NCBI GenBank assembly: GCA_011391125.1 | Contig: JAABRE010000014.1 | Span: 4,109-68,108 of the forward strand | Direction of reading: 5' to 3' | Length of the DNA stretch: 64,000 nucleotides | Source of the DNA: Synechococcales cyanobacterium S06 | GTDB taxonomy: Bacteria; Cyanobacteriota; Cyanobacteriia; Cyanobacteriales; JAABRE01 | Shown here: piece after piece, positions 14,654 to 32,994 of the stretch | Layout of the letters: each line of letters begins with the position of its first letter | Numbering within the stretch: position 1 is the first letter of the stretch | Notes under the pieces: model-generated | What the model was told of the DNA's origin: nothing | Database searches by the model: none | Seen by the model: the letters and a program-made list of their open reading frames with translations, nothing else | Program-made: the position numbers and the translations under genes

Positions 14654-14746
14654 AAATCTTTAAATATTTTTAACCAAATTATAGCTATTTACTGGATGAA
14701 CCAAAACTGACCAGAAAAGCAAGGTGTAGGGGTTAACGTAACTATG

Positions 14747-14886: not shown

Positions 14887-15000
14887 TACTGTGATTCTAG
14901 CTTGTGTCATAATTGTTTCTTAATCGGTAATTACCTGAATTAATACTCTTTTTGTAGTATTGTTAAGATTATCAATCTTTCCCAATTTATAGATATTTAT

Positions 15001-16449
15001 ATGTCAATCACTGTTTATAACACCTTAAGTCGTCAAAAAGAAGCCTTTTCTCCTATTGAAACTGACAAAATCAGAATGTATTGTTGCGGAATGACTGTTT
15101 ATGATTATTGTCATATTGGTCATGCGAGAACTTGTTTAATTTGGGATGTTGTCAGAAGTTACCTACAATGGCGGGGTTATCAAGTTAATTATATCCAAAA
15201 TTTTACTGATATTGATGACAAAATCCTGAACCGCGCCCGTCAGGAAAATACCACCATGGAGGCAGTTTCTGAGCGTTTTATTGCCGCTTATTTTGAAGAT
15301 ATGGCAAATTTGGGGGTAAAAAAAGCAGACGCTTATCCTCGCGCTACACATAGCTTAGACGGGATTAAACGTTTGGTTTATGAGTTGGAGCAAAAAGGCT
15401 TTGCTTATCCCAGCGAGGGGGATGTTTACTATTCCGTCCGTAATTTTCCGGATTATGGTAAGCTTTCTGGGCGCAAATTAGAGGATTTGCAAGTGGGGGC
15501 CAGTGGCAGAGTTGAAGTGGAAGACCCAGAAGCAGCCAAGAAAAAATATCCCTTTGATTTTGCTTTGTGGAAAGCGTCAAAACCCGGTGAACCGTCTTGG
15601 GAGTCAAATTGGGGAGCAGGGAGGCCTGGTTGGCACATTGAATGTTCCGCCATGGTACGCGAGAGATTGGGGGAGACCATTGATTTTCACGTCGGAGGCA
15701 GTGACTTGATTTTTCCCCACCATGAAAATGAAATTGCCCAATCGGAAGCAGTGACAGGGAAACCTCTGGCCAATTATTGGTTACATAATGGGATGGTGAA
15801 GGTGGGAGGCGAAAAAATGTCCAAATCTTTGGGCAATTTTACCACTATTCGCGATTTATTGGCGAAATTTGAACCCGAAGCAGTTAGATTATTTATTTTG
15901 CAGGCACATTATCGCAAACCCATTGACTTTACCGACGAAGCATTGCAGGCTGCCACCAATGGTTGGCATACCCTGCGACAAGGCTTATTATTTGGCCAGC
16001 AATATGGCGCAAAATTAAACTGGGATAAGGAGTTAAATTTCGATAAAAATATTGCCTTAGAATTTGAAAAAGTGGTGGATGAAGACTTTAATTTTAGTGG
16101 TGGTTTAGCAGTTTTATTTGAGGTAGCGAAAAATTTAATCAAGGAAGGCAATATTTTAGTACATCAAGGGAAAACAGAAACTTTAAGTAATGAGTTACAA
16201 AAACAATGGCAAACTTTGGTAAAATTAGCAGAAGTTTTAGGTTTTGAAGCCAAAATTGACCAGGAAGTTAAGATTAGTAATAACGGGTTAACAGATGAAG
16301 CAATTGAGACTTTAATTAGCCGAAGAAGTGAGGCTAAAAAAGCGAAAAATTTTGCGGAAGCTGATCGTATTCGCAATGAATTACAGTCCCAAGGAATCAA
16401 TTTAATTGATCAATCCGGTGGTGTAACAAAATGGCACAGAAATAGTTGA
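15001..16449 (+). CDS. cysS: Cysteine--tRNA ligase
   Basis: 482 aa with a HIGH-type motif (CHIGHARTC), KMSKSLGN and WHIECSAM. Confidence 0.97.
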   Translation: MSITVYNTLSRQKEAFSPIETDKIRMYCCGMTVYDYCHIGHARTCLIWDVVRSYLQWRGYQVNYIQNFTDIDDKILNRARQENTTMEAVSERFIAAYFEDMANLGVKKADAYPRATHSLDGIKRLVYELEQKGFAYPSEGDVYYSVRNFPDYGKLSGRKLEDLQVGASGRVEVEDPEAAKKKYPFDFALWKASKPGEPSWESNWGAGRPGWHIECSAMVRERLGETIDFHVGGSDLIFPHHENEIAQSEAVTGKPLANYWLHNGMVKVGGEKMSKSLGNFTTIRDLLAKFEPEAVRLFILQAHYRKPIDFTDEALQAATNGWHTLRQGLLFGQQYGAKLNWDKELNFDKNIALEFEKVVDEDFNFSGGLAVLFEVAKNLIKEGNILVHQGKTETLSNELQKQWQTLVKLAEVLGFEAKIDQEVKISNNGLTDEAIETLISRRSEAKKAKNFAEADRIRNELQSQGINLIDQSGGVTKWHRNS

Positions 16450-16623
16450 TAATTGACAATTATAGCATTTTCAGATTAAAGGAGAAACATCCCTTACCCC
16501 CAACCAAAGGAAGAGGGGGAAGAAGATTCCTCATAAATTTTATAAGTGCTATAACAATTAACAATTAGGAAGTGTGAGCATCTTGCTCACGAATTGATCA
16601 AGTATCAATGGTAAAATAAATGA

Positions 16624-19600
16624 ATGAATCAGTTTAATTTTTCAGATCAAAAATTTATACCGTTAATTATTCTAACTTTGTTGGGATATTTGGGAAATTA
16701 TTATCATCTCTCTGTCTTTTTTGGGGTAGATTTCCTTTTTGGTAGTATCTTTGTCTTTTTAACTATCTATTATTACGGTATTATTCCTGGTACAATTGTC
16801 GGTTTTATTGCTTCCGTTTATACTTATCAACTTTGGGGACATCCATTTGCCATTATTATTTATACCTTAGAATCTGTATTTATTGCTTGGCAATTATATT
16901 ATAAAAAACAAGAAAATATAGTTTTTTGGGCTGGCTTTTATTGGCTTTTAATTGGGATTCCTTTGGTCTTATTATTTTATGGTTTACTTTTAGAAGTACC
17001 ACCTAATGGGACATTATTAATTGCTTTAAAACAATCCGTTAATGGTATATTTAATGCTTTGTTAGCCAGTTTAATAATTAATTATTTACCTGTCTATAAA
17101 TGGTTGAAAAATAACAAATATAAAAACAAGTTATCTTTACAGCAAACTATTTTTAACTTATTAGTTAGTTTTGTCTTTATTCCTGCTTTAATTATTACCA
17201 TTTTAAATGGTAATCAAATTATGAATACCATCAAAAGTCAAATAAATATTGAGTTAAATTCCATCGCTCAACCCCTGTCAGCTAATCTTAACCTATGGTA
17301 TAATCAACATTTCTATGCTGTTAATCAATTAAATAAAATTGCTTCGGAAACTACGACTCTTGCCACTTTACAAAATAGCACCGAGTTAATCAAAAAAGCT
17401 TCGCCGGATTTTTTGAAAATGTATGTTACTGATGTTAATGGTAAGATTATTAGTGCCGAACCCAATCTTAATGAAAAAGGGCAACCAATGCTTCGTTTAA
17501 ATATAGCTGATCAACCAGAATTTAAACTAGCTAAAACTATTTTAAATCCCCTGATTACTGATGTTCATATTGATCAAGCTTATCCTTTTCCCCATCTGGG
17601 AATTATGATTCCTATTATTAAGAATAATAGCTTTCAAGGAGTTACTTATGGTTCTTTAGATTTAAAAGAAATTAACCAAGTATTTAAGGATAGTTCCCGA
17701 AAAAGACAATTAAAAATAACTTTAATTGATCGACAAAATAAAGTTATTACCAGTACAGATTTAGACACCAAAAATCAGAATTTATTCCTACCAGACAAAG
17801 AGCGGGAAATCCAGCATCTTGATGATAATATTTATCAATCTTTACCGATTGCTAAAGGTATGCCAATTATGGTACGTTGGCGGAAATCTTTTCATGTTAA
17901 ACAAATTGCGGTATCCTCAGATATTCCTTGGACTTTAGTCGTTGAACTGCCTACTAGTCCTTATATAGATTATATTGAAAGATTATATATTAAAAGTTTA
18001 GCTTTAATGCTATTAATTACAATTTTAGCCTTAATTTCAGCCATTATTTTAAGTACAAAATTAGTTAAACCGCTATTAATTCTGGCTTCTTTAACAACTA
18101 ATTTACCAGAGAAATTAGAAAATAATTTAATTGCCACGGATTTACCAGATAGTGATATTAAAGAAATTGAAACCTTGAGTTATAATTTTCAATTAATGCT
18201 TCTCGCACTTAATGAGAAATTTCAAGAAATTAAACAAGTTAATAATAACCTCGAAACAATCGTAGAAGAAAGAACCCAAGAATTGTTAGAATTAAATCAA
18301 GAATTAGAGGAAGAAATTAAAGAAAGGGAACAAATTCAGCACATATTAATTGAAAAAAAGGAACGTTATGATTTAGCGGTTTCCGGTACAAATGATGGCA
18401 TTTGGGATTGGCATTTAAACACCAATGAGGTTTATTTTTCTCCGTCATGGATGCGAATTTTAGGTTATGAAGATTCCCCTTTACCTAATCATATTTTAAG
18501 TTGGATAGATAATGTGCATCCAGATGATTTAGAACAGACTATTAAAGCTATTAATAATCATCTCGAAGGTAAAACACCACTTTATGAAAATAGCCATCGT
18601 CTTAAACATAAAAATGGTGATTATATTTGGATTGCAGCTAAGGCCAAATGTATTTATGATCAGGAAGGAAAACCCTATCGTTTAGTTGGTACAAATTCGG
18701 ATATTACTGACAGAAAATTAGCCGAAGAACAACTACAAATTACTAAAGAAGAAGCAGAATCTGCTAATCTTAGTAAGAGTGAATTTCTCGCCACTATGAG
18801 TCATGAAATTCGTACTCCCATGAATGCTGTGATCGGAATGACTGGCTTACTTTTAGATACAAATTTGACGAGACAACAACGAGATTTTGTGGAAATTATT
18901 AGAAATAGCGGCGATAGTTTATTAACAATTATTAATGATATTCTTGATTTTTCTAAAATTGAATCTGGTAATTTAGAGTTAGAAGAACAACCTTTTAACC
19001 TTCGCATTTGTATTGAAGAATCTTTAGATTTACTCGCATCTAAAGCTCGGGATAAAAATATTGAATTGGCTTATTTAATGACTCCTAATACTCCTGAATT
19101 AATTATGGGAGATGTGACAAGATTAAGACAAATTTTGGTTAATCTTCTCGGTAATGCGATTAAATTTACTAATTCTGGTGAAGTGGTTGTATCAGCGGAT
19201 TCAACTATTATTGAGGGTGATAATTTACCTTTGTGTTTAATACAATTTGCTGTTCGTGATAGCGGTATTGGTATTGCACCTCAACGTATGCATCGACTAT
19301 TTAAAGCTTTTAGTCAAGTCGATTCTTCCACCACTAGAATTTACGGAGGCACCGGATTGGGGTTAGTAATTAGTCAAAAATTAACCGATTTAATGGAAGG
19401 TCAAATGTGGGTAGAAAGTGGGGGCTTTGTTGGTGGCAATGTTCCGGTTAATTGGACTTTTGAACCGAGGCCAATTGGTTCTACTTTTTATTTTACCATT
19501 GTTACTAATCCTGTCTATTATTCCTGTTTATTAGATCAGAAGAATAATGATAATTTCTTGAAAGATAAAGAATTATTAATAGTTGATGATAATATGACCA

Positions 19601-20784
19601 ATCGTCAAGTTTTAACGATGCAAACTCAATCTTTTGGCATGATTCCTTTAGCTGTAACTTCAGGAAAGGAGGCTTTAAATATTTTAAAAAAGGGAAAAAC
19701 TTTTGATTTGGCCATTCTTGATATGCAAATGCCAGAAATGGACGGAGTTATGTTAGCTCATCAAATTCGTCAAGCTGATTATGGGAAAAATTTACCTTTA
19801 GTTATGTTAACTTCTCTTGGTAAAACTGAATTGAATCAAGCTAATGAAATCGATTGGGCTGCTTATTTGAATAAGCCAATTAAACAATCTTATCTTTATA
19901 ATGTTTTAGTTAATATTTTTGAAAAGTCGCCCATACCTCAGATTAATTATCCCTTAGCTGAGACTAATTATGACTCAGAAATGGCCACTAAATTACCTTT
20001 AAAAATTCTCTTAGCTGAAGATAATGTCGTTAATCAAAAAGTGGCTCTTAATATTTTAAAACGTTTGGGCTATCGGGCAGATATTGCCGCTAATGGTTTA
20101 GAAGTTCTTGATTCTTTGGAACGTCAATTTTATCATGTAATTTTAATGGATGTACAAATGCCAGAAATGGATGGTTTAACTGCCACTAAGAAAATTAAAC
20201 AACTATATTCACCGGAAAATTGTCCCCGCATTATTGCAATGACGGCTAATGCAATGCAAGGCGATCGAGAAATTTGTTTACAATCTGGTATGGATGATTA
20301 TATTAGTAAACCTATTCATATTAAAGAGTTAATTAGTGCTTTATATCAGTGCGAATCCACTATTTATCCCCTTAAAAAAACGCCTCAAAATCAGCAAGAA
20401 AAAATGACAGATAATCAGATTATTGCTCCTAATATTTTAGATCAAGCAGCTTGGGATGAATTAATCACTATTGTGGCCGATGGTGATAATGAATTATTAA
20501 TTGAATTAATTAATTCCTATTTAGAAGATGCCGCTAAATTAGTACAATCTATCCAAGAATCCATCGAAAAATCAGACGCTCTTTTATTACAAAGAGCAGC
20601 TCACACTCTTAAATCTAGTAGTGCTTCTTTAGGAGCAAAAACTTTCTCTTTATTGTGCAAAGAATTAGAATTAATTGGCCGTAGTGGTGATATTTCTCAA
20701 GCTGAACCTCTGTTAGATAATTTCATCATTGAATATCAAAAAGCCATCATGGCCTTGACTTTAGAATTAGAGAAACTCAATTAA
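16624..20784 (+). CDS. Hybrid sensor histidine kinase (multi-TM N-domain, periplasmic domain, PAS, HisKA, HATPase, REC, REC, Hpt)
   Basis: 1386 aa. H-box [14 protein letters not shown], N/G boxes ([14 protein letters not shown]), two receiver domains ([22 protein letters not shown]) and a C-terminal Hpt ([14 protein letters not shown]). Confidence 0.95.
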   Translation: [1386 protein letters not shown]

Positions 20785-20815
20785 TAATTATTAATTAATC
20801 ACCTAGTAAAGTGTA

Positions 20816-20883
20816 GGGTGGGTTAGCAGCGAGATTAATTTTGATGAAAAACCAATAACTTTTGATTCGCAGCGTAACCCACC
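20816..20883. repeat. Hairpin with GGGTGGGTTA ... TAACCCACC termini (relative of the GGTGGGCAATT family)
   Basis: Inverted termini at 20816-20825 and 20875-20883, 30 nt after the kinase stop. Confidence 0.6.
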
Positions 20884-21173
20884 ATTTTCACGAACTAATA
20901 AGTAATAAATAATAAGTTTGACCTCTCGATGAATCAATGAGGATTGAATAAGGAAAAAATTTTGTCGTTTTTCCCATTCTAAGCTGTCGGTCGCAAGTTC
21001 TAGCCGTACCCGTTATTTTAAATGATGTTTTATTCACATTGAAACGGCTATCATTGGTTTGAGACGATCCATCTTTAATTTTTACCAGATGTCAATTGTA
21101 TTTTTTTGGTAAAGTTGCGTTCTTTTTGGGGCAGTTATGGTTAAAATGTGGCTAATTTAGTTATTTTTTTACG

Positions 21174-22991
21174 ATGCTTGCTCCTATTCAAGTTAATACA
21201 CTGATTGATTTATTGCAATTGAGAGCCGAAACTCAACCCCATCAACACGCTTACACTTTTTTGATTGATGGTAAAAAGGAGTCAGCCCCTTTAACCTACG
21301 CTGACTTACAACGTCAAGCTAAGGCGATCGCCGCCACTTTACAAGAAAGTCAAGTAAAAGGGGAAAGAGCTTTACTGCTGTATCCCCAAGGGTTAGAAGT
21401 AGTTGCGGCTTTTTGCGCTTGTTTATATGCTGGTGTAATCGCCATCCCAGTGCCACCTCCGGAATCGGGAAGATTAAAACGCACGTTGCCGCGCTTGAGG
21501 GCAATAGTCAAAGATGCCCAAGCATCCCTAGTTTTAACCAATGGCTCAATTTTGGAATTAGTCGCCAATGTGGAAGCGGAATTTCCTGAATTTGCCCAAA
21601 TGAGGTGGATTGACACGGAAAAAATCGACTTAAATTTAGCCGAAAAATGGCAAAATCCCCAGATTTCTCAGGATACTTTGGCCTACTTGCAATATACGTC
21701 AGGTTCGACAGCCACCCCCAAAGGCGTAATGTTGACCCACCATAACTTGATCCACCATTGTCGATACTTGCAACGTGCCGGCGGTTACAACGAAAAAAGC
21801 GTCACTCTAACCTGGATGCCCTATTTTCACGATTATGGCTTAGTGGAAGGAATTATGGTTCCCCTTTACAACGGCCACCCTTGCTATTTAATGTCACCAT
21901 TTGCCTTTATTAAACGCCCTTTACAGTGGTTAATTAATATTACTAAATATGGGATTTCCCACTCCCAAGCGCCTAATTTTGCCTACGATTTATGCGTCAG
22001 AAAAATTAAAGACAAGCAAATTAGTGACTTAGATTTAAGTCATTGGGAAGCAGCCGGCAATGCGGCAGAACCCATCAATCCCAGGGTAATGTTAGAATTT
22101 GCTGACAAATTCGCTCCGACTGGTTTTCAGTGGACCACCTTTGCACCAGCTTACGGATTGGCGGAATACACCTTGTTGGTTTCCAATAAACCCAAGGGTA
22201 CAAAACCCGTATTTTGCGCCGTGAAAAGCGCCAGTTTAGAACAGGATCACGTCGTCATCGCCGCTCCTGACCAAGAAGAAGGGGTTAAAATTATTCCTAG
22301 TTGTGGTCAATTAGTCTGCGAAACCGAAGTGGCCATTGTGCATCCTGACACCTTAACCCGTTGTACAGACAGCGAAGTGGGCGAAGTTTGGGTTAAAGAC
22401 CAAAGTGTCGCCCAAGGCTATTGGCAACGTGCCGAAGAAACCGACAAAACCTTCCGCGCTTATCTTAAAGATACGGGAGAGGGACCGTTTTTAAGGACAG
22501 GAGACTTGGGCTTTTTGCGGGAAAATGAATTGTATATCAATGGTAGAATTAAAGATTTAATCATTGTTAGAGGAAGTAATCACTATCCCCAGGATTTAGA
22601 GTGGAGTGTCCAAAACCTAGACCCAGCCTTGCGTTCCGACTATGGCGCTGCTTTTTCCGTCGAAATTGACGAAGAGGAAAGACTCGTAATCGTCCAAGAA
22701 ATCGAGAGAAAAGCCGAAAACCTAGACACGGAGAAACTTATTGCTGATATTCGCCAAGAAATCGCCGAAGAGCACGAATTGCAGGTCTATGCGATCGTGT
22801 TGGCTAAACCGGGGACAATCTTAAAAACGGCCAGCGGAAAAATTCAGCGTCGTGCGATTCAAGCTAATTTTTTGGCGGGAAAAATCGATGCCCACGATGA
22901 CTGGTGTGAAAACATCAAACAAAGTTTGAAATATAAAAACCTCGAACAACAAGTCGAAAACCTAGAACAACAAGTAAAAACAGGAGTTTAG
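21174..22991 (+). CDS. Fatty acyl-AMP ligase (FAAL-type adenylating enzyme)
   Basis: 605 aa. N-terminal LTYADLQRQAKAIAATLQ ... GERALLLYPQGLEVVAAFCACLYAGVIAIPVPPP is FAAL-typical. Also LQYTSGSTATPKGVMLTHHNL and GDLGF ... GRIKDLIIVRG. Confidence 0.85.
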   Translation: MLAPIQVNTLIDLLQLRAETQPHQHAYTFLIDGKKESAPLTYADLQRQAKAIAATLQESQVKGERALLLYPQGLEVVAAFCACLYAGVIAIPVPPPESGRLKRTLPRLRAIVKDAQASLVLTNGSILELVANVEAEFPEFAQMRWIDTEKIDLNLAEKWQNPQISQDTLAYLQYTSGSTATPKGVMLTHHNLIHHCRYLQRAGGYNEKSVTLTWMPYFHDYGLVEGIMVPLYNGHPCYLMSPFAFIKRPLQWLINITKYGISHSQAPNFAYDLCVRKIKDKQISDLDLSHWEAAGNAAEPINPRVMLEFADKFAPTGFQWTTFAPAYGLAEYTLLVSNKPKGTKPVFCAVKSASLEQDHVVIAAPDQEEGVKIIPSCGQLVCETEVAIVHPDTLTRCTDSEVGEVWVKDQSVAQGYWQRAEETDKTFRAYLKDTGEGPFLRTGDLGFLRENELYINGRIKDLIIVRGSNHYPQDLEWSVQNLDPALRSDYGAAFSVEIDEEERLVIVQEIERKAENLDTEKLIADIRQEIAEEHELQVYAIVLAKPGTILKTASGKIQRRAIQANFLAGKIDAHDDWCENIKQSLKYKNLEQQVENLEQQVKTGV

Positions 22992-23107
22992 AAATCCGGT
23001 TCGTAGTTGCGCTCGTTGCGCACTAAAATTGTCAATTCTTGAGAGTTTGTTTAGGGCGATCGCCTCGACAACTAAACTACAAATAATTAGAAATCCAATT
23101 TTATATT

Positions 23108-24871
23108 ATGAAAAAATTACTCCAATATAACCTAGCAGAAACCGTCGAAAAAGACTTAGGAAATCCAGAAATTCCTAACAGTATCCTATCCTATCAAAGA
23201 GTAATTGAAATCGACGAAAGCGAGCAGTTTCCCCACGAGGAAGTTGCTTGGCTTTATAACCAGAAATACCAACATTATTATATACCTGAAAATTGCGGCG
23301 GAAAATTTACTTCCTTTGAGGACTTTGTCGCATTTGTCAGGGTATTAACGAGAAGGGATTTAACCACAGGAATCGCTTTTACCACCATGTTTTGGTCCTT
23401 TTTAACTTGGATGGCGGGAAATGACGAACAAAAACGCATTTTATCCCATTACATGAGGGAAGAAAATGGAGCAATGTGTTTAGGTTACTCTGAAAAAGAG
23501 CATGGAGCAGACTTAGTTGGTGGTGATTTAACAGCGACTAAAGTTGAAGGTGGTTATCTTTTAAATGGCGAAAAATGGCCAATTAATCGAGCGACAATTT
23601 CCGGGGTTGCTTACATTTTGGCGAAAACAAATAGCGAAGGTGGTGCAAGATGTTTGTCCTTATTTATGGTAGAAAAAAGTAAGATTGATGGCAATAATTA
23701 CTATAATTTGCCTAAGATTTTAACCCATGGAATCCGCGCTTCTGACATGAGTGGTATTGGGTTTAAGGATTGTTTTGTCCCGGATTCCATGTTAATTGGA
23801 AAAGAAGGAGAAGGGTTAGAAATTGCCCTGAAAGGGTTTCAAATTACCCGTACTTTATGCTCAGGTTTTTCCCATGGAACAGCAGATACGGCCTTAAGAA
23901 CCACTTTAAAATTTGCCATTAATCGCCGACTTTATGATAAGAATGTCTTTGATCTTCCGCAACCAAGAAAGGTTTTAAGTGACGCTTTTTTAGATTTGTT
24001 AATTTGTGATTGTGAAACGATTTCATCAGCTCGGGGTTTTCATGTCGTGCCCGAACAATTTAGTGTTTGGTCCGCAGTGGTTAAATATTTTGTTACTGTT
24101 CAATTAGAAAGGATGGTTAATGATATTTCTGCGGTGTTAGGAGCGCGTTATTATTTCCGCGAAGAACATGATTTTGGCATTTTTCAAAAAATATTGAGAG
24201 ATAATGCTATTGTTAGTGTGTTTGATGGAAGTACCGTGGTTAATTTACACGCTTTAATCCTACAATTCCGCCAATTAACTAAATATCGTGGCAAAAGAAA
24301 TGAGCAAATTCTTAACAGTATTGAAGATCGTTTACAAACTATTTTTAGTTTAGATCAAACATTACCAACTTTTGCTCCTGAAAAGTTAGCCTTATTTGGT
24401 CGAGGTGCTGATGATGTGTTACAAGGTTTAGAAATTGCCTTACACAAATTAGAGGAATTAAAAAATAATTCTGAAATTAATCCAGAGGTATTAAATCATG
24501 TAATTAATTTGGGTAATATGGTGTTAACCGAGTTAAATGAACATGATCAATTGATCGCAAAATCTAGCTTTGAATATGGTCACAATCAATCCCCAGAAAT
24601 GTTTGAAATTGCGAAAAAATACTGCACTTTACATACTGCTACAAGTTGTTTATTTATGTGGCTTTATAATCGTCAAAATTTAGGGGACTTTTTCGCCCAA
24701 GGTGAATGGTTAGTATTAGCTTTACATCGGCTTTTACGCACTTTTAAACCTTTACCTTATACAATTTCTGAACTTTATGAAAGCAATCTTACTCAAGAAA
24801 TGGTTAAACTATACCAAGATGAGAAAATGTTTTCAATTGTACCTTTTCAATTAGCAAAAATTAACCCCTAA
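23108..24871 (+). CDS. Acyl-CoA dehydrogenase-family protein (long form; probably acts on acyl-carrier-protein substrate)
   Basis: 587 aa. GYSEKEHGADL, GEKWPINRAT, GIRASDMSGIGF are ACAD middle-domain-like. It sits between the FAAL and carrier-protein genes. Confidence 0.7.
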   Translation: MKKLLQYNLAETVEKDLGNPEIPNSILSYQRVIEIDESEQFPHEEVAWLYNQKYQHYYIPENCGGKFTSFEDFVAFVRVLTRRDLTTGIAFTTMFWSFLTWMAGNDEQKRILSHYMREENGAMCLGYSEKEHGADLVGGDLTATKVEGGYLLNGEKWPINRATISGVAYILAKTNSEGGARCLSLFMVEKSKIDGNNYYNLPKILTHGIRASDMSGIGFKDCFVPDSMLIGKEGEGLEIALKGFQITRTLCSGFSHGTADTALRTTLKFAINRRLYDKNVFDLPQPRKVLSDAFLDLLICDCETISSARGFHVVPEQFSVWSAVVKYFVTVQLERMVNDISAVLGARYYFREEHDFGIFQKILRDNAIVSVFDGSTVVNLHALILQFRQLTKYRGKRNEQILNSIEDRLQTIFSLDQTLPTFAPEKLALFGRGADDVLQGLEIALHKLEELKNNSEINPEVLNHVINLGNMVLTELNEHDQLIAKSSFEYGHNQSPEMFEIAKKYCTLHTATSCLFMWLYNRQNLGDFFAQGEWLVLALHRLLRTFKPLPYTISELYESNLTQEMVKLYQDEKMFSIVPFQLAKINP

Positions 24872-24884
24872 AAGGAGCAAAAAC

Positions 24885-25259
24885 ATGACAGTGACCCAAT
24901 CCAATTCCCAGTTAGAAACCGTCCAAAATTGGCTGATTAATAAATTAGCGGAACAACTTTCTTTAGAGTCCGAAACTATCAATATTATTGAACCGTTAAC
25001 CCGTTATGGTTTAGATTCCATTGATGCTGTCACCATGGTTGGTGATTTAGAAGACTGGCTAGATCTAGAATTACCTTCAACCCTATTTTGGGACTATCCA
25101 ACCATCGAAAAATCCTCCCAATATTTAGCCGAAAATTTTGATTTATCAGGTGCTATAAATGGGGATAAAACTGATAGTAAACCCGCAGCAAAAACCCCCG
25201 AACCAGTTGCAGCTGGTAAAGAAAAAACAGGTTTATTTGGTCGTTTAATGGGTCGGTAA
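24885..25259 (+). CDS. Acyl carrier protein (PP-binding) with a Lys/Pro/Ala-rich C-terminal tail
   Basis: 124 aa. RYGLDSIDAVTMV carries the phosphopantetheine Ser. AAGGAG Shine-Dalgarno 8 nt upstream. 13-nt gap to the ACAD gene. Confidence 0.85.
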   Translation: MTVTQSNSQLETVQNWLINKLAEQLSLESETINIIEPLTRYGLDSIDAVTMVGDLEDWLDLELPSTLFWDYPTIEKSSQYLAENFDLSGAINGDKTDSKPAAKTPEPVAAGKEKTGLFGRLMGR

Positions 25260-25332
25260 TTCCCTCACTCCCTCTTCCTAGAGGAGAGGGAAGATGAATT
25301 TTTAAATATTATTAAATCATAGAAATAAGGCC

Positions 25333-26790
25333 TTGAATTACTCAGATTTTTCTTTTTGGTGGATATTAATCCTATTTTGTATTCCCTTTTTTAGCGTTCG
25401 TTTCCTTGCCAACAAACTTAATCTTTGGCGAGGTGTTTTTGATACAATTGGGATTATTTCCTTATCATTAATTCTGTTTTATAAGGCCAGTCCTTCTAGT
25501 TTTTTAGTCTTTATATTTGAGTTAATTGTTAACTATTTAATGGTGCAATATATGCTCAAAAAAGAAGGAGCGCAAGCCAAATTAATTGCCACAATTATTA
25601 TTATTTTTGATGTGGCAATTTTAGCGTATTTTAAATACTTGATATTTTCAGTAGAAAATGTAATTGGCTTAGTTTTTTCGATACCAGAAAACTGGCAAAC
25701 AAATTTTATTATTCCTGTTAGTAATAAGATTCCTCCGGGAGTTTCTTTTTATACTTTTCAAATGATATCTTTTGTCGTTGATTCCCTTAATCTAAGAAAA
25801 AAGAAACCGATTGCTTTCCTAGATTACGTCAATTTCATCGCCTTTTTCCCGCAAATTGTCGCTGGTCCCATCGAAAGACGCATAGATTTATTACCGCAGA
25901 TTACCAATTTTAGGTTTAAATTTACGGTGGAAAATTTTGAGGAGGGTTTTCGTTGGATATCTTTGGGAATGTTTATGAAATTTGTATTAGCAGATAATAT
26001 TTCCCCTTATATTAAGTTAGAAGAAAGCGGTAATCCTTGGGTAATTTGGTTTTTTGCTTTTCTGTTTACTTTAAGAATTTATTTTGATTTTGCTGGTTAC
26101 AGTTTTGTCGCAATGGGTTTAGGTAAAATTCTAGGGATAAGATTAACGGTGAATTTTTTAGCTCCCTATACTTCCCAAAGTATTAATGAATTTTGGCGCA
26201 GATGGCACATTACCTTAAGTACATGGTTTAGGGATTATGTTTTTATACCATTAATGGGCTCACAAAAACAATTAGCACCCACATTTTTATTTATTACCTT
26301 TACCCTATCAGGTTTTTGGCATGGAGCAGCCTGGAATTTTATTATTTGGGGTGCATATCACGGTAGTTTATTGTTAGTATTACGCTATCTAGGAAGACCT
26401 TTTCAAAGATTAGTAGGTAAATATTTCAAACAATCAGAATTTATTAGTTGGGGTTTAACTTTTGGTTCAGTAGTTTTCGGCTGTTTATTCTTTATGGAAA
26501 GTAACACGGGGAGACTTTTAACTAAGTTGAAAACCATTGCCCTACCTTGGCATTATTCTCTTACAAATTTAACTGATTTTGTAAGTTCCTATAGTATTAA
26601 TGAAATAGCAGCTTTATTAATAATTTTAGGCTTATCAATCGGCACTTTATTGTTAGAATTTATGGCAGTATGGAAGGGGAAATTTGAATATGAATTATTG
26701 CTTAACCCAAAAATATCTCCTTTCCTTTTAGGCTTAGTATTTCTGTTAGCTTCTAATGAAACTTCCAAATTTATTTATTTTGAGTTTTAA
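25333..26790 (+). CDS. MBOAT-family membrane O-acyltransferase (DltB/AlgI type)
   Basis: 485 aa, multi-TM. FWRRWHITLSTWFRDYVFIPL and SGFWHGAAWNFIIWGAYHG (conserved MBOAT His). TTG start in the ORF track. Confidence 0.9.
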   Translation: MNYSDFSFWWILILFCIPFFSVRFLANKLNLWRGVFDTIGIISLSLILFYKASPSSFLVFIFELIVNYLMVQYMLKKEGAQAKLIATIIIIFDVAILAYFKYLIFSVENVIGLVFSIPENWQTNFIIPVSNKIPPGVSFYTFQMISFVVDSLNLRKKKPIAFLDYVNFIAFFPQIVAGPIERRIDLLPQITNFRFKFTVENFEEGFRWISLGMFMKFVLADNISPYIKLEESGNPWVIWFFAFLFTLRIYFDFAGYSFVAMGLGKILGIRLTVNFLAPYTSQSINEFWRRWHITLSTWFRDYVFIPLMGSQKQLAPTFLFITFTLSGFWHGAAWNFIIWGAYHGSLLLVLRYLGRPFQRLVGKYFKQSEFISWGLTFGSVVFGCLFFMESNTGRLLTKLKTIALPWHYSLTNLTDFVSSYSINEIAALLIILGLSIGTLLLEFMAVWKGKFEYELLLNPKISPFLLGLVFLLASNETSKFIYFEF

Positions 26791-26798
26791 TTATCAGT

Positions 26799-27728
26799 AT
26801 GAAACCAGTCAAATTACTTCCTTGGTTAATTAGTATTAGTGTAGCGTGGTCATCCGGTTTTGTTTATAATGTTTATTTCGGCGGGCTGATTGGTTGGCAT
26901 CGAAAAACCTATAATAATAAAGTAGCTTTAGCTGCTAATATTCAAGCCGAAAAACGATTAATTTTCGTTGGAGGTTCTGGTGTTCATTATACTCCTAATT
27001 CTGAATATATGGAGGAAAAACTTGGCTTTCCTGTGTTTAATATGGGTTTAGATGGTAAGCTAGGTTTAGATGTGATTCTTCCTTTAGCTTTGGAACAAAT
27101 AAAAAAAGGTGATCTTGTCTTATTAATTCCCGAATATTTACTACTTTTAGATGACGATGGAATTGGGACAATTTCTTTTCAACTTGCTTTAGCAACTAAT
27201 CATTTAAACTTAGTAAAACTTTCGCCAAAAGAGTTTTTTGAAAACATTTGGATGTTAGGAATACCCGGTTTAAAACCTTTAGTAAAATCAGGGGTAGATT
27301 TAGCGACAAAAGGATATTTTGATGAATACTTTTCTGATCCTATTACCGAAAGGGGAGAGCCAACAAAAACTTGGGTGAGAAAGAGTAAATGGTGGCCCAT
27401 GACAGTGGATCAACCTGTATCAGAATACTCTTTAAAAAGTATTGCTAAATTTAAACAAGATGTGGAAGCAAAAGGCGGAACTTTGATTTTATCTTTACCG
27501 ATTATTTATGGTAGTAATGATGAAAAAACTAAGGAAAATGTCCAAAAAACTGCTGAGCAACTTGCCAAAATTGCTCCTTTAATTTATGATCAAGAAACTT
27601 TAAATATTTGGACAGATTCTAATTTATTTGCTGATACTCATTATCATCTCAAACCAGAAGGGAGACTGATTAGATCTCAAGAAATAATTAAGGAATTACA
27701 ACCTATACTTCAAAAAATAAATCCCTAA
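26799..27728 (+). CDS. Membrane-anchored extracytoplasmic protein, candidate DltD/AlgJ-like partner of the MBOAT
   Basis: 309 aa with an N-terminal signal-anchor (LLPWLISISVAWSSGFVY), FVGGSGVHY (candidate Ser) and a C-terminal FADTHYHLKPEG (Asp/His). 8-nt gap to the MBOAT gene. Confidence 0.45.
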   Translation: MKPVKLLPWLISISVAWSSGFVYNVYFGGLIGWHRKTYNNKVALAANIQAEKRLIFVGGSGVHYTPNSEYMEEKLGFPVFNMGLDGKLGLDVILPLALEQIKKGDLVLLIPEYLLLLDDDGIGTISFQLALATNHLNLVKLSPKEFFENIWMLGIPGLKPLVKSGVDLATKGYFDEYFSDPITERGEPTKTWVRKSKWWPMTVDQPVSEYSLKSIAKFKQDVEAKGGTLILSLPIIYGSNDEKTKENVQKTAEQLAKIAPLIYDQETLNIWTDSNLFADTHYHLKPEGRLIRSQEIIKELQPILQKINP

Positions 27729-27829
27729 TAGTTCGCCAAAATAATCACAAAGGAGCATTTTTGTTTGTGAACCCAAATAAATGCTAACCTATAAAAATAA
27801 CAAATCATTCATCAAAGGAACTTAAACAG

Positions 27830-28807
27830 ATGTTAGTACAAAAGCTCGATAAATTACAACAATTCTTAAAACAATTTCAAATATATCGTCGTATTCCTGA
27901 TAGGTTTTGGTCTGAAAAAATTTTAGAAGCTGATCTGAGTTTTCATAAATTAGATTATGACAAAAATACCAAAAAAATCTTAATCAAACCGTTTAATTTT
28001 TTGCTTTCTCAAGAGCAAAAACCGTATCATTTTTTACTAAAAGAGACCAATGTTAGATTAGCCGAACTATTAAAGAGAGACTTTAATACTAATTTTGAAA
28101 CCAATGAAAACCAAGAATTAGTTATTAATTTAGATGGAATTAAAGCGATCATTAAATGTGAACAAGATTTGGAAATTATTCATGAAATATTTATCCAAGG
28201 AGTTTATAACTTTATTTACGATCAATCCTTGGTAGTTATTGATATTGGGATGAATACAGGATGGGCCAGTTTATATTTTTCCCTCAGAGATAATGTGAAA
28301 GGAGTATATTCTTTTGAACCTTTTCAAAAAACTTATGAAGAAGCGTTAAATAATTTTAGTTTAAATCCTAAACTTACCGATAAAATTCATCCTTTTAACT
28401 ATGGAATTAGTGGGAAAGAAGAGACCATAAATGTAGAATATGATTATGAGATGAAAGCCAGTATTGGTGTTAAAGGATTACCAAGTAATTTGGCTACAAA
28501 TAAAGAAAAATCCTTAGAAACTGCCCAGATTTTGCTGAAATCAGCTACCGAGGTTTTAAACCCAATTTTTAGTGAATATCCAGAGGTGGAATTCATGGGA
28601 AAAATTGATTGTGAAGGTTCTGAATATGAGATTTTGGAATCTTTGGAAAAAGCTAATCTTCTTAGTCGTTTCAAAATAATTATTATGGAATGGCACGAAA
28701 AAGGACCAGATCAATTAGTAGAATATCTAACTAAAGCTAATTTTACAATTTTTTCTCGTCGTCCTAAAAGCAAAACTATTGGCATGATTTATGCGATAAG
28801 ATGTTAG
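27830..28807 (+). CDS. FkbM-family SAM-dependent methyltransferase
   Basis: 325 aa. VIDIGMNTGWASLYF (SAM motif I variant) and KIDCEGSEYEILESL, typical of FkbM. Confidence 0.8.
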   Translation: MLVQKLDKLQQFLKQFQIYRRIPDRFWSEKILEADLSFHKLDYDKNTKKILIKPFNFLLSQEQKPYHFLLKETNVRLAELLKRDFNTNFETNENQELVINLDGIKAIIKCEQDLEIIHEIFIQGVYNFIYDQSLVVIDIGMNTGWASLYFSLRDNVKGVYSFEPFQKTYEEALNNFSLNPKLTDKIHPFNYGISGKEETINVEYDYEMKASIGVKGLPSNLATNKEKSLETAQILLKSATEVLNPIFSEYPEVEFMGKIDCEGSEYEILESLEKANLLSRFKIIIMEWHEKGPDQLVEYLTKANFTIFSRRPKSKTIGMIYAIRC

Positions 28808-29102
28808 TTTAAAACTTGTAAACCCTTTAAAAAAGAAGTGGAAAATAAGGATAGAAAATTAATTTTATCCTTACTTTAATTTACAAGATAGTCACCAATT
28901 ATTTGCTGATATCTAATATCACTTATTACCAGAAGGGAGAAACATTCGGTCTGAACAAATTGTAAAGCAACTGAAAGCTATAGTAGAAAGTAAATAAATT
29001 CTTAACTTAATTTATCGGTCAATTCTGATTTATAATAGGAATTGAATTTAATAAATTAAAATCGAAAAATTCTCAAATATAATTAATTTTACCAGAGGTC
29101 TA

Positions 29103-30932
29103 ATGTCATTACACGATCGCTATTTAAACCTAATTGATACTATCGTAAATATTTCTTTAGAAGGGAAAATTCGTTCCAAAGAACAAGTTTACCGAATGTT
29201 AACAGAAGAAGTCAGTCTTAGTACGGGAGAAATTTTTGAATTATGTTTAGATGAAAATATCAATGTAACTGAATCTCAATTAGAAACTAAACTCAAAGCA
29301 ACTCGTATTTTGAGGGCGTTACAGACAATTAAGGGAGAATGGGAACGCTATTTAAAAGACCAGCAAATTTCAGCGGTAATAACATCATCAACTCAAGAAA
29401 TTATTGATGCAGAATCTGAAGAACGTTTAATAACCTTATTGAAAATAATTGACCAGAATCAAGCTAAAATATTAACCTTAGAACAAATACAACAATTAGT
29501 TAAATCCCTTAAACAAGAATTAGAAATACAATCAAATTTGACTTTAGCCCAAGAATTACGTCAACTAACTAATGGTATTACTAGAGGTATAGAATCTTGG
29601 CAAAAAATTGAACCTTATTTAATTAGTTGGATTTATGAACAAAATAATAATCCTTTAGGATTCGGGGGAATTGCGGAATCAAAAGGACCTTGGATATTAT
29701 GGTCAAAACAGGTAGATAATCCTTTAGTTCAACAGCTTTTTAAAACCATTGCCAGTAATCAATCTTTAAGTCAATTACCATTAGAAACTTATGGTAAAGA
29801 TGTCAGTAGTTGGGTAGAATTAGCTATTATTTTTCAGTATTTACAAAGAGGATTAGTAGCCTGGTTTGATCAGCAACCTTATAATGTAAAAATAGGAAAG
29901 CAATTATCTATTTCCACCTTTCTTACCTTTGCTGGAATTTGGAGTCAGTTATCTCAATGTTTTAATCTAACTAATTATCAAATATTGGCTAATAGCTGTT
30001 TTCAAATAATGTTACAAATTTTGCGAACGTTTGCTCAACGCCCAGATTTTCCCCTTTATGGTGGTATTTTTGCCTCCTTTTCGGGAGCATATTTAAAAAA
30101 TACTTTAGCCTATTTAGATACACCTTTAAAAAAAGCAGAAAAGACCCAAGAAAAAGCGCGAATTTTAACCTTATTGGGTTATTCTGAACGCACTTTAGGA
30201 CAATATGAAAAGGCGATTTCTTTCCATGAAGATGCTTTGAAAATTGCCCGTAGTGCTGAAGATAAACTCTGTGAAATTGCTAATTTTAATCATTTATCCC
30301 GTATTTTTGTCGCTCAAAAAAATTATGCTGAAGCGATTAATTATAGTCAAAGAGCCTTAATTTTAGCTCGTCAAACTGGTGATAAATTAGGTGAGGCAAA
30401 TGCCTTAGTAAATTTAGGTTATAGTGAGGTATTTTCCGCTCGCGAAAAAGATAGTATTGAACCAGAAATTTATGAGTCAGCCATTAATTATTTAGAGCAA
30501 GGTTTAGCTTTATCAATACGTTTAGAAGATAATCAAAGTAAGGCTCTTTGTTACTCTAGTTTAGGTATTGCTTATCTTATTTTAGAACAACCTCAAACTA
30601 CGATTAAATATTTAACTGAGGGTTGGAAATCGGCCCAATTTTCCGGTGATTTATATTTGCAAGGACTTAATTTAAGCTATTTAGGTGAAGCTTATTATAG
30701 TATTTCTTTGTTACCAGAAACTGTTATTTATGCTGGTTTAGGAATGTATCTTTTAGAGCAAATTGGCGCAAATGAATGGCGACAACCTGCTGGTTTATTA
30801 ACTGTTTTAAAAGGTAAAGAAGCGGAGTTATTTGAGGTAGCTTTAAAACAAGGGCGATCGCAAATTATCGCCCTAATTGGAGTTGATGGTTATGATTATT
30901 TACCAGAATTATTGGCAAAATATCAGCAATAA
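29103..30932 (+). CDS. TPR-repeat protein with an uncharacterised ~340-aa N-terminal domain
   Basis: 609 aa. The C-terminal half has repeated A-x-x-x-Y-x-x-A-L-x-I-A/LGYS TPR-like units (e.g. AINYSQRALILARQTGDKLGEANALVNLGYS). Confidence 0.7.
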   Translation: MSLHDRYLNLIDTIVNISLEGKIRSKEQVYRMLTEEVSLSTGEIFELCLDENINVTESQLETKLKATRILRALQTIKGEWERYLKDQQISAVITSSTQEIIDAESEERLITLLKIIDQNQAKILTLEQIQQLVKSLKQELEIQSNLTLAQELRQLTNGITRGIESWQKIEPYLISWIYEQNNNPLGFGGIAESKGPWILWSKQVDNPLVQQLFKTIASNQSLSQLPLETYGKDVSSWVELAIIFQYLQRGLVAWFDQQPYNVKIGKQLSISTFLTFAGIWSQLSQCFNLTNYQILANSCFQIMLQILRTFAQRPDFPLYGGIFASFSGAYLKNTLAYLDTPLKKAEKTQEKARILTLLGYSERTLGQYEKAISFHEDALKIARSAEDKLCEIANFNHLSRIFVAQKNYAEAINYSQRALILARQTGDKLGEANALVNLGYSEVFSAREKDSIEPEIYESAINYLEQGLALSIRLEDNQSKALCYSSLGIAYLILEQPQTTIKYLTEGWKSAQFSGDLYLQGLNLSYLGEAYYSISLLPETVIYAGLGMYLLEQIGANEWRQPAGLLTVLKGKEAELFEVALKQGRSQIIALIGVDGYDYLPELLAKYQQ

Positions 30933-31061
30933 TTTTAAATAATTGCCCTTAACTAAGTAAGTAATCATCAAAGCAAGTATCATAAAAAATAGTTCGTTGT
31001 TGCGCTTTAGCGCTCTCTATCTAAATTGCGAAGTTAAATGATAATTTTTCATTTTTACTGA

Positions 31062-31287
31062 TAATTAGGGTTTACGGAAAAAAGCTGAAAGCTATGTAGA
31101 TCAAGACTTTCAATTTGGTGGGACTTGAATTAAGTGCAAGGATTGCAACAAATAATAGTAAAAAACCTTACATTTACGGGGATTAATCAAGATTTTTGCT
31201 CGTCAAAAGACCCGGTCAAACTATCAACTATCAACTATCAACTATCAACTCGCCCTCACCAGCCATTTATTCAGCAAACCCTAATTA
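31062..31287 (-). mobile_element. 226-bp MITE, copy 1 (TAATTAGGGTTT terminal inverted repeats)
   Basis: Reverse complement of 43796-44021 with a few substitutions. Termini are TAATTAGGGTTT / AAACCCTAATTA. It carries an internal CTATCAA heptamer run. Confidence 0.85.
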
Positions 31288-31429
31288 GATGTCTTGCAAA
31301 ACTGAGTTCGTAGTTGTAATTTATTGCCAAAAAAAAGTTTTTATTAACAGAATTAATCGTTTTTCAAACAAATTATTTGAGGACTAAAATCCAACTACAA
31401 AGCTAATTTAATAGTTTCGCAAGATGTCT
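31288..31429. repeat. Palindromic element of the GTTCGTAGTTG family, directly abutting the MITE
   Basis: GATGTCTTGCAAAAC (31288-) is inverted as GTTTCGCAAGATGTC (31414-31428). Inner arms are GTTCGTAGTTG (31306-) and CAACTACAAAG (31392-). Confidence 0.7.
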
Positions 31430-31464
31430 ATTTTAACCACCTACTTAGCTCCATGGAGAATTAA

Positions 31465-32994
31465 CTAACTCATCCTGTCAATGGTCCGATATTGGATTGC
31501 TTCGGCCAAGTGCTGAATTTGCAAATTATCTGACTCCGCTAAATCTGCAATGGTCCGTGCTACCTTGAGGATACGATCCATCGCCCTAGCTGAAAGACCC
31601 AATCTTTTGATCGCACTTTCCAATAAATTATTACTAGCTTGATCCAAATCGCAATGACTGCGCAAATGCCTGGTTTGCATCTGGGCATTGCAGCGAACGA
31701 TTTTTTCGCCCTGAAAACGTTGAGAAGCCTTGTCACGGGCATTTTTAACCCGTTCTCGCACGTTTTTCGAGTCCTCCCCTGTACTTTGCTTGGTCATTTC
31801 TTCTGGTTTTAAGCGGTTGACGGCGACTTGTAAGTCAATGCGATCGAGCAGGGGACCTGATAATTTAGCCCAATATTGTTCTCGTTGGCGAGGGCTACAG
31901 GTGCATTGTTGCAGGGTATCGCCATAATAACCGCAGGGACAAGGGTTGGTACTTGCCACAAGGGTAAATTGGGCCGGAAATAGTACGGATTGGCGTGTCC
32001 GAGAAATGGTGACGTAACCATCTTCGAGGGGTTGGCGCAAATATTCTAAAACGGTGCGTTTAAATTCGGTTAATTCGTCTAAAAAAAGGATACCTTGATG
32101 AGCTAGGGAAATTTCCCCCGGTCGGGGAAAACTTCCTCCTCCCACTAAGGATGGTCCACTGGCCGAATGATGAGGACTTCTAAAAGGGCGCTCGGTGATT
32201 AAATGCCCTTGGTTTTTCAATAAACCAGCGACGGAGTGAATTTGGGAAACTTCCAACGCTTCACTAAAATTCAAGGGCGGTAAAATGCTCGGTAATCGCC
32301 TTGCTAACATGGTTTTGCCGCTTCCGGGTGGTCCCACGAAAATTAAATTATGGCCCCCGGCTGCGGCAATTTCTAAGGCGCGACGTGCATGATTTTGCCC
32401 TTTTACTTCTTTTAAGTCAAGATGTGTCAGGGCAGAATGCTCCAAGTTTTCTTCTAGCTTAAATTCCGTTGCGCTATAGTTGTGGGGTTGATTCAAAAAG
32501 TCCGCAACTTCTCCGAGAGATTCAAATCCATAAACAGAGATTCCTTTGACAACTGCCGCTTCGTTGGCGTTGTCTTTGGGAACTACTAAGCTCCGAATGC
32601 CTAGTTTTTGGGCAGCGGCGGCGATCGGCAACACCCCTGAAACCGGTCTTAATGCACCGTCTAAGGAGACTTCTCCTAAAAATAGGTGGTCCCCTAAAAG
32701 GTCAGTATTCACCTGTTCAGATGCGGCTAAAATGCCGACACTAATGGGTAAATCAAAGCTTGGTCCTTCTTTGCGTAAGTCGGCTGGTGTTAAATTAATC
32801 AAAATAGTCCGCAGAGGGAAGGCAAAACCGGCATTTTTTAAGGCTGCTTTGACTCTTTCTCTCGACTCCTGTACTGCCGTATCCGGCAACCCAACAATGA
32901 TGGTTTTCGGCAAGCCCCCAGCGACATCCACTTCAATGCCGACTTTTACAGCATCGATACCTAATATTGACGCACTCCAAACTCTGGCTAACAT
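31465..32994 (-). CDS. comM: YifB/ComM-family Mg-chelatase-like AAA+ ATPase
   Basis: 509 aa. N-terminal Lon-protease-like VEVDVAGGLP, Walker A GPPGSGKTM, ILFLDELTEF. Confidence 0.95.
   Translation of the reverse strand: MLARVWSASILGIDAVKVGIEVDVAGGLPKTIIVGLPDTAVQESRERVKAALKNAGFAFPLRTILINLTPADLRKEGPSFDLPISVGILAASEQVNTDLLGDHLFLGEVSLDGALRPVSGVLPIAAAAQKLGIRSLVVPKDNANEAAVVKGISVYGFESLGEVADFLNQPHNYSATEFKLEENLEHSALTHLDLKEVKGQNHARRALEIAAAGGHNLIFVGPPGSGKTMLARRLPSILPPLNFSEALEVSQIHSVAGLLKNQGHLITERPFRSPHHSASGPSLVGGGSFPRPGEISLAHQGILFLDELTEFKRTVLEYLRQPLEDGYVTISRTRQSVLFPAQFTLVASTNPCPCGYYGDTLQQCTCSPRQREQYWAKLSGPLLDRIDLQVAVNRLKPEEMTKQSTGEDSKNVRERVKNARDKASQRFQGEKIVRCNAQMQTRHLRSHCDLDQASNNLLESAIKRLGLSARAMDRILKVARTIADLAESDNLQIQHLAEAIQYRTIDRMS

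Follow-up and report, generated by a model that had tools for sequence, protein, structure and literature searches.

Bacterial pathways that pair a membrane-bound O-acyltransferase (MBOAT) with an SGNH-fold protein are currently described with acetyl from acetyl-CoA or D-alanine from DltC. In the Dlt system (DltA/C/B/X/D), an adenylating enzyme loads a carrier protein, the MBOAT takes over the acyl group, and the tyrosine of an FxYxxF motif hands it on to an SGNH protein that is anchored in the membrane and acts outside it. Apart from Dlt, pathways of this type are reported to work without a carrier protein and with acyl-CoA as the donor (PMC12148441). Here, a six-gene cassette of Synechococcales cyanobacterium S06 is compared with these systems. 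It is located at positions 21174-28807 of a 64,000-nt stretch of contig JAABRE010000014.1, which was analyzed as a whole and is referred to as the window. The cassette encodes a FAAL (fatty acyl-AMP ligase), an acyl-CoA dehydrogenase (ACAD) family protein, an acyl carrier protein (ACP), an MBOAT, a membrane-anchored protein of 309 aa and an FkbM-family methyltransferase. With moderate confidence, it is interpreted as an MBOAT-SGNH trans-envelope acylation pathway that has a private acyl-carrier donor arm. As donor, a dedicated acyl-ACP that is supplied by the FAAL and that the ACAD probably dehydrogenates fits better than an acyl-CoA. What the host cyanobacteria place on a surface target is probably a fatty acyl group in place of the customary acetyl or D-alanyl group.

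The likeness to Dlt extends to all of the steps named above, which are predicted for the cassette, and DltB and DltD are the best and among the best structural matches of the cassette MBOAT and the 309-aa protein, respectively. The cassette differs from Dlt in having a FAAL instead of DltA, an ACP that resembles those of polyketide synthases (PKS) and an interposed ACAD. Furthermore, the shuttle motif is fused to the MBOAT, whereas it is located on the separate microprotein DltX in Dlt, the cassette misses the DltB and DltD family models, and its host, a Gram-negative phototroph, has no teichoic acids. Two extra helices, a terminal FxYxxF motif, an adjacent SGNH gene and a predicted extracytoplasmic target are shared with PatA/PatB, AlgI/AlgJ/AlgX and WssH/WssI (PMC12148441). 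In contrast to these, the cassette MBOAT gene is linked to dedicated FAAL, ACAD and ACP genes, and its SGNH partner belongs to another family, for which no Pfam model exists. Donor logic of the Dlt type is thus combined with transferase features of the PatA type, and the system is therefore regarded as a hybrid. This fits an MBOAT-SGNH pathway of PatA/AlgI architecture that has acquired Dlt-like donor logic.

Mycobactin lipidation relies on the FAAL MbtM, the ACP MbtL, the acyl-ACP dehydrogenase MbtN and the acyltransferase MbtK. The cassette is similar in logic only, as a FAAL, a stand-alone ACP and a putative desaturase of the ACAD family are combined with predicted delivery by an acyltransferase without PKS extension. 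MbtK is a soluble GNAT protein that acts on a cytoplasmic siderophore intermediate, whereas the cassette has an MBOAT with an outward shuttle, and the MbtN model scores 18.4 bits on the cassette ACAD, against a cut-off of 700. HHAT, the second structural match of the cassette MBOAT, PORCN and GOAT are MBOATs that take medium- or long-chain acyl groups across the membrane to a secreted substrate. They are, however, fed by acyl-CoA without a carrier or an SGNH partner and transfer the acyl group directly to protein.

In cyanobacteria, MBOATs have been proposed as sugar acylators for varlaxin and for suomilide/banyaside (BslP). The varlaxin proposal involves a stand-alone adenylation domain (A-domain; AerO), a peptidyl carrier protein (PCP; AerP) and an MBOAT (AerQ) in a nonribosomal peptide synthetase (NRPS) cluster (PMC10143770). 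In contrast to the cassette, the varlaxin and BslP systems are embedded in NRPS clusters and have a small-molecule acceptor, no ACAD and no reported SGNH partner or shuttle motif; the acyl group of varlaxin is hydroxyphenylacetate. The view that DltB is the only characterized MBOAT fed by a carrier protein, stated in the first-pass annotation of the locus, still holds, but the AerO/P/Q trio has to be named beside it as a proposed case. A literature search retrieved no published FAAL/ACP/MBOAT system, Dlt and the proposed varlaxin trio being the nearest, and two recent FAAL reviews mention neither MBOATs nor ACADs.

Gene content and synteny of the cassette

The six open reading frames (ORFs) of the cassette are encoded on the plus strand and separated by 116, 13, 73, 8 and 101 nt, according to the ORF calls on the window. 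The gaps on the flanks measure 389 nt upstream and 295 nt downstream. Coordinates, gaps and all domain calls agree with the first-pass annotation. Profile searches against Pfam and NCBIfam settle five of the six gene identities, and the 309-aa protein is identified by structure prediction only. The features are as follows.

21174..22991, plus strand: FAAL, 605 aa; PF00501 and PF23024; putative fatty acid adenylation and ACP loading
23108..24871, plus strand: ACAD-family flavoprotein, 587 aa; PF02770, PF00441 and PF02771; Asp373 at 24224-24226
24885..25259, plus strand: stand-alone ACP, 124 aa; PF00550; phosphopantetheine Ser45 at 25017-25019
25333..26790, plus strand: MBOAT acyltransferase, 485 aa; PF03062; H330 at 26320-26322; FIYFEF with Tyr482 at 26770-26787
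26799..27728, plus strand: membrane-anchored SGNH-fold protein, 309 aa; AlphaFold2 (AF2) and Foldseek; Ser60 (GGSG) at 26976-26978; His283 in DTHYH at 27633-27647
27830..28807, plus strand: FkbM-family S-adenosylmethionine-dependent methyltransferase, 325 aa; PF05050 and TIGR01444
28875..28988, plus strand: degenerate second copy of the SGNH-partner gene (C-terminal part); tblastn; between the FkbM gene and a TPR gene

At least 14 genomes of cyanobacteria, belonging to several orders, share the gene order FAAL-ACAD-ACP-MBOAT-309-aa protein. These include Romeria, Xenococcaceae, Microcoleaceae, Geitlerinema, three Phormidesmis genomes, Leptolyngbyaceae, Coleofasciculus, a metagenome-assembled genome (MAG) of Cyanobacterium sp. 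and further MAGs. Its recurrence across orders indicates more than a chance arrangement. The tightest link is that between the ACP and MBOAT genes, which are found beside or near each other in 22 of 23 informative distinct loci with an orthologous MBOAT; among these, they are about 1.7 kb apart in locus L006 and separated by an FkbM block in L171 and L173. At other MBOATs, neither an ACP nor an ACAD was found in 60 loci from non-cyanobacterial genomes and 80 metagenome loci, with ACPs being searched by hidden Markov models and phmmer (E. coli AcpP among the queries). Two Firmicute loci (L028 and L037) were considered as carrier-fed candidates and rejected: an AMP-binding gene is located about 3.5 kb from the MBOAT, with an opposite-strand gene in between and no ACP.

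The first-pass annotation had pointed to the lack of ketosynthase (KS) and condensation (C) domains in the 64 kb, and none was found among the window ORFs of at least 350 aa. In the window and the orthologous loci (536 kb), no PKS/NRPS, no second adenylation domain and no second ACP were detected, and homologous cassettes embedded in PKS/NRPS clusters were accordingly not seen. The ORFs of at least 800 aa in these 536 kb encode ClpB, RpoC, IF-2 and sensor kinases, plus an unexamined 1036-aa ORF in L080.

Most relatives (L004, L006, L010-L016, L086 and L170) add a downstream Pyr_redox_2 flavoprotein (385-418 aa) together with a membrane protein, about 620 aa in length, that combines HTTM (vitamin-K-carboxylase-like) and DCC1-like thiol oxidoreductase domains. 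These proteins might reoxidize the ACAD or modify the acyl chain. A second MBOAT, which is AlgI-like and paired with a separate partner of about 390 aa, is additionally encoded in many genomes, and genes resembling glycosyltransferases of the GT-C type are present in extended clusters. The Pyr_redox_2 and HTTM/DCC1 genes and the second MBOAT pair are all absent from the 64-kb window. A reduced set, ACAD-ACP-MBOAT-Pyr_redox_2 without a local FAAL or SGNH gene, is found in Crocosphaera, Rippkaea and a Microcystaceae MAG. That ACAD, ACP and MBOAT stay linked even in the Crocosphaera and Rippkaea loci speaks for the connection between carrier and MBOAT.

The last gene of the cassette encodes an FkbM methyltransferase (PF05050, 43.8 with a cut-off of 22.7; TIGR01444, 62 with a cut-off of 37.7) that is not present in about 20 orthologous loci. 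That it is a gene of the window only was ruled out, as orthologues with 46-67% identity are embedded in three other cassettes. It follows the SGNH gene in the Cyanobacterium sp. MAG (L170), is located on the opposite strand between ACP and MBOAT in Chroococcopsis gigantea (L171), and lies between the second MBOAT pair and the ACP in L173. A homologue with 42% identity is part of a polysaccharide cluster. Given the three other arrangements, FkbM is therefore a recurrent cassette accessory in one cyanobacterial sub-lineage, and its initial inclusion in the cassette was justified.

Downstream of FkbM, the segment 28875-28988 shares 50% identity with the 309-aa protein over residues 268-305 of the latter. 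It reads LFADI*YHLLPEGRNIRS, in which an in-frame stop interrupts the DTHYH motif. A longer remnant of the partner gene (86-aa ORF) is found at the same position in L089, a 96%-identical relative. The remnant is a trace of rearrangement at the downstream end of the cassette.

The proposed acyl-carrier donor arm

The first protein of the cassette matches PF00501 (E 5e-65) and PF23024, the DIP2/FAAL-type C-terminal domain. Its top NCBIfam matches are all FAAL families, with E-values of 1e-115 to 1e-134 and 386-448 bits (PRK05850, E 4e-134), all of these scores being under the lineage-specific curated cut-offs. The DltA model PRK04813 reaches 105 bits, against a cut-off of 476. FAALs are distinguished by a FAAL-specific insertion, a FAAL-specific helix and a blocked CoA pocket (PMC8460268). 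Acyl-CoA ligase models match the protein more weakly and are mostly broken into two or three stretches, and the alignments of fatty acyl-CoA synthetase models break just before residues 376-382, which may hint at such FAAL-specific features. In the PDB sequence search, the best matches are 7r7e ('Polyketide synthase', E 3e-159), 3kxw (saframycin Mx1 synthetase B) and FadD32/23/28; 7r7e and 3kxw are presumably FAAL-type enzymes despite their other deposited names. The top 15 PDB matches are FAALs or FAAL-type loading domains, several of them deposited under other names, and the first clearly non-FAAL match is McyG (E 4e-44). FAAL orthologues with 59-73% identity head the cassette in 15 loci. 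The orthologue of one Phormidesmis MAG (L013, 5721-7666) is spread over three frames, reflecting a frameshift or an assembly error. All characterized FAALs load fatty acids onto holo-ACP (PMC12820801, a survey from 2026).

The second protein scores above the cut-offs of PF02770 (44.9 vs. 33.3) and PF00441 (35.4 vs. 22.4) and just below that of PF02771 (21.8 vs. 22.9). Its residues 33-394 align with butyryl- and medium-chain acyl-CoA dehydrogenases (Bcd, 5ol2; MCAD, 4p13). In this alignment, an FDGS motif with Asp373 is found opposite YEGT, so that the catalytic glutamate of MCAD (Glu376) is replaced while the carboxylate is kept. Asp373 is unchanged in 21 orthologues. The C-terminal extension of about 200 aa has no sequence match in the PDB. 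The ACAD is predicted to dehydrogenate an ACP-bound acyl chain.

The carrier consists of a PP-binding domain (PF00550, E 2e-13) with the DS motif; Ser45 is located within GLDSID, and LTRYGLDSIDAVT is unchanged across 21 orthologues. Its best PDB matches are PKS-type ACPs, including Asl1650, and not DltC. Towards the C-terminus, a variable acidic and proline-rich linker is followed by the basic-aromatic peptide KTGLFGRLMGR (residues 114-124, positions 25224-25256). Such a tail is unusual for an ACP. With the consensus KKGWGGL[FW]GR, it is found in 17 of 21 orthologues and is missing from the Romeria/Phormidesmis group. The tail may serve as a tether to the membrane or to the MBOAT. A gene for an Sfp-type phosphopantetheinyl transferase adjoins the cassette in L003.

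The MBOAT and its SGNH-fold partner

The MBOAT scores 88.2 bits with PF03062 (cut-off 27). Its histidines H292, H330 and H343 do not vary, and H330, part of a WHG motif, aligns with the WHG of DltB and is kept in 61 orthologues. DltB structures are matched by sequence with an E-value of 1e-25. For the AF2 model (predicted local distance difference test, pLDDT, 83), the best Foldseek match is DltB (6bug; TMt 0.71, E 1e-9), followed by HHAT and LPCAT3. Residues 276-294 (LAPYTSQSINEFWRRWH) form the most conserved stretch of the protein, yet they are the only segment with a pLDDT below 50.

Beyond the DltB core, the model has extra C-terminal helices at residues 422-447 and 461-472. The protein ends with FIYFEF (residues 480-485), and each of the 22 orthologues examined likewise terminates in an unvaried FIYFxF. 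This sequence fits the FxYxxF acyl-shuttle motif, which was defined and shown experimentally for DltX and PatA (PMC12148441). The score with the DltB equivalog TIGR04091 is 177.5, less than half of the cut-off of 375. The architecture is thus the PatA/AlgI layout with a fused FxYxxF and is not DltB-like. The first-pass annotation had described a Dlt-like MBOAT cassette, a description that can be kept for the proposed donor logic but has to be abandoned for the transferase; its gene identities, the synteny and the SGNH partner are retained. It had also named an MBOAT that groups with AlgI/PatA and shows no ACP interface as evidence to the contrary, and of these two points the PatA/AlgI layout was found.

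The MBOAT orthologues form a tight clade with 61-81% identity that, within the sample, is confined to cyanobacteria. The next-best MBOATs share at most 43% identity.

The 309-aa protein has no match in Pfam or NCBIfam, even at E ≤ 1, or in the PDB sequence search, and hence no match to the DltD family. Its AF2 model (pLDDT 90.9) comprises an N-terminal transmembrane helix, a second helix and an alpha/beta domain. When compared with the PDB using Foldseek, the model matches SGNH esterases and DltD (6pfx, E 8e-5, TMq 0.42), and also 6o93 and 7dxm. The protein had initially been assigned a role like that of DltD or AlgJ. The fold, the presence of DltD among the best structural matches and the MBOAT-adjacent family described below agree with this assignment.

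By exhaustive profile search, the family of the 309-aa protein was found to comprise 3,860 clusters (50% identity) at E ≤ 1e-3, mostly of 300-320 aa. It has no Pfam model and is marked by the motifs GGSN and F[FY]DTxYHLN. GGS (Ser60), Asn81, Asp105, Glu112 and Tyr282-His283 are kept even in members with about 20% identity, Ser60 and His283 without any variation. Distant relatives were searched for in metagenomes with a 14-sequence profile, yielding 80 loci (L090-L169), of which 70 are informative. The pairing with an MBOAT is near-obligate, as an MBOAT ORF directly adjoins the family gene in 68 of the 70. In Akkermansia, an MBOAT and a member of the family form a pair amid acetylation genes. 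Among close members, 37 of 46 have charges around the transmembrane helix that fit an N-in/C-out topology; among distant ones, 12 of 14 do. From the MBOAT adjacency and this topology, the family is therefore taken to provide cognate, outward-facing MBOAT partners, and the 309-aa protein is predicted to be an extracytoplasmic acyl acceptor and transferase. About 3,860 clusters without a Pfam model would be annotated as cognate MBOAT partners in this way. In one metagenome contig (L128, 1960-3357), an MBOAT and a partner-family gene are accompanied by an AMP-binding ORF that ends at the contig edge; this may be a further adenylate-fed MBOAT pair outside the cyanobacteria.

Candidate pathway, alternative readings and genomic surroundings

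We infer the transfer steps, together with the fatty substrate, the enoyl product and the acceptor, as follows. The FAAL would activate a fatty acid by adenylation and attach it to the Ser45-phosphopantetheine of the ACP. The ACAD, with Asp373 as the base, would then oxidize the tethered chain, 2-enoyl-ACP being the likeliest product, comparable to the role of MbtN in mycobactin lipidation. The ACP would dock at the cytoplasmic face of the MBOAT, where its basic-aromatic tail possibly holds it at the membrane. Catalysis by His330 would move the acyl group to Tyr482 in the FIYFEF of the MBOAT itself, at the outer face. From the acyl-tyrosine, the group would pass to Ser60 of the SGNH partner and finally form an ester on an extracytoplasmic acceptor, most likely a cell-surface glycan. 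FkbM, as a lineage-specific accessory, probably methylates the same glycan or product.

A surface glycan is favored as acceptor because of a GT-C/GT2 insertion, the second MBOAT pair that accompanies the cassette, and the context of FkbM. The insertion is found in a stromatolite relative (L084), whose MBOAT is 80% identical and which has the same genes for cysteinyl-tRNA synthetase (CysRS) and kinase upstream. There, a PMT_2/GT-C protein, an unknown protein of 544 aa and a glycosyltransferase of the GT2 type are encoded between the MBOAT and SGNH genes (11623-17068). This hints at a glycan or glycolipid acceptor. As a lead only, a review mentions reports of fatty acids among the minor substituents, other than carbohydrates, that exopolysaccharides of cyanobacteria carry (PMC4500136).

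In its most far-reaching form, the proposal is that a medium- or long-chain acyl group, possibly 2-enoyl, is exported by the acyl-tyrosine shuttle and esterified on a surface glycan or protein. Hedgehog, Wnt and ghrelin lipidation would then have a bacterial equivalent, fed by acyl-ACP in place of acyl-CoA. We advance this form tentatively, as somewhat less than an even bet. If true, lipid-decorated envelope polymers of a new class would be defined, and benthic mat-forming species could owe their hydrophobic surfaces and their adhesion to them. More generally, a conserved clade in which an MBOAT-SGNH pair is coupled to a FAAL, an ACP and an ACAD would extend the acyl-tyrosine shuttle mechanism to fatty acyl groups and point to an unrecognized lipid modification of the cyanobacterial cell surface. 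It would also give a function to FAALs outside biosynthetic gene clusters, which have been reported but are so far uncharacterized.

Several points weigh against a trans-envelope pathway fed by acyl-ACP. In architecture, the MBOAT falls in with the PatA/AlgI group, which uses acetyl-CoA, and the relatives nearest to it outside the cyanobacteria operate without a carrier protein. The base position of the ACAD is occupied by Asp and not Glu, and the role of the protein on ACP substrates is putative. Loci of the Crocosphaera type have no local SGNH partner, and conversely L087 and L088, both from one organism, have the order MBOAT-SGNH-Pyr_redox_2 with no FAAL, ACAD or ACP nearby. As the Pyr_redox_2 and HTTM/DCC1 genes are missing from the window, the pathway may be incomplete there or completed in trans. 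Finally, a cyanobacterial surface polymer that carries a matching fatty ester is not known to us.

According to the main rival explanation, two independent modules are neighbors by chance. The MBOAT-SGNH pair would then be an ordinary acetyl-CoA-dependent O-acetyltransferase of polysaccharide or peptidoglycan, and FAAL-ACAD-ACP would feed another lipid pathway. The PatA/AlgI architecture is in line with this explanation, as are the distant MBOAT-SGNH pairs without an ACP, the Akkermansia pairs among acetylation genes, and the MBOAT-SGNH arrangement without donor genes in L087/L088. A weak PlsC-like acyltransferase gene upstream of the Rippkaea ACAD could likewise point to another consumer of acyl-ACP; this candidate was rejected, as the gene is confined to Rippkaea and present in no other locus. 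Chance association is weakened because the ACP-MBOAT link (22 of 23 loci) outlasts rearrangements, with the set remaining intact through insertions of FkbM or of the second MBOAT pair, and because, in many genomes, the same cluster already contains another MBOAT-partner pair of the AlgI type. In addition, the MBOAT clade is sharply set off from MBOATs without an ACP. Overall, we consider two unrelated modules unlikely, though not negligibly so.

It is a little less likely still that the same chemistry serves a small molecule or a membrane glycolipid, that is, natural-product or lipid tailoring as proposed for BslP and AerO/P/Q. Sugar-acylating cyanobacterial MBOATs have been proposed in print, in one case together with an A-domain and a PCP (PMC10143770, PMC13122637), HHAT and LPCAT3 are the next structural matches after DltB, and the GT2 and GT-C genes of L084 could make a glycolipid. 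However, no NRPS, PKS or scaffold genes are found near about 25 orthologous loci, and the surrounding genes are housekeeping genes. The MBOAT identity of 61-81% across orders is unlike that of strain-specific natural-product clusters, and the combination of a fused tyrosine shuttle with an outward SGNH partner is a hallmark of envelope-polymer acylation.

That FAAL and ACP form a lipo-initiation module priming a PKS/NRPS line encoded elsewhere, the usual role of such pairs and one in line with the resemblance of the ACP to PKS-type ACPs, is very improbable, as there is no KS or C domain in the 64 kb and no second adenylation domain or ACP in the 536 kb, the ACP is linked to the MBOAT instead, and the neighborhood survey already contradicts it.

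The remaining ORFs of at least 350 aa in the window have housekeeping or unrelated functions; among their products are ATP synthase, CysRS, NusA, IF-2, a sigma factor, a hybrid kinase and glycosyltransferases. An Rfam scan of the window gave no match, and in a promoter and terminator scan of 20600-31500 the counts were not above those of shuffled sequence. On the minus strand, an AAA_5 (McrB-like) ATPase and a C-5 cytosine DNA methylase are encoded at 5604-8045, the part of the window with the lowest G+C content (0.27). This islet is probably a restriction-modification or defence locus. Two groups of surface-glycan genes are located 20-35 kb downstream of the cassette, namely a GT1-type glycosyltransferase with an ABC exporter (47174-50450) and a GT2/GT87-like/GT2 group (58768-62062). 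They could be related to the acceptor.

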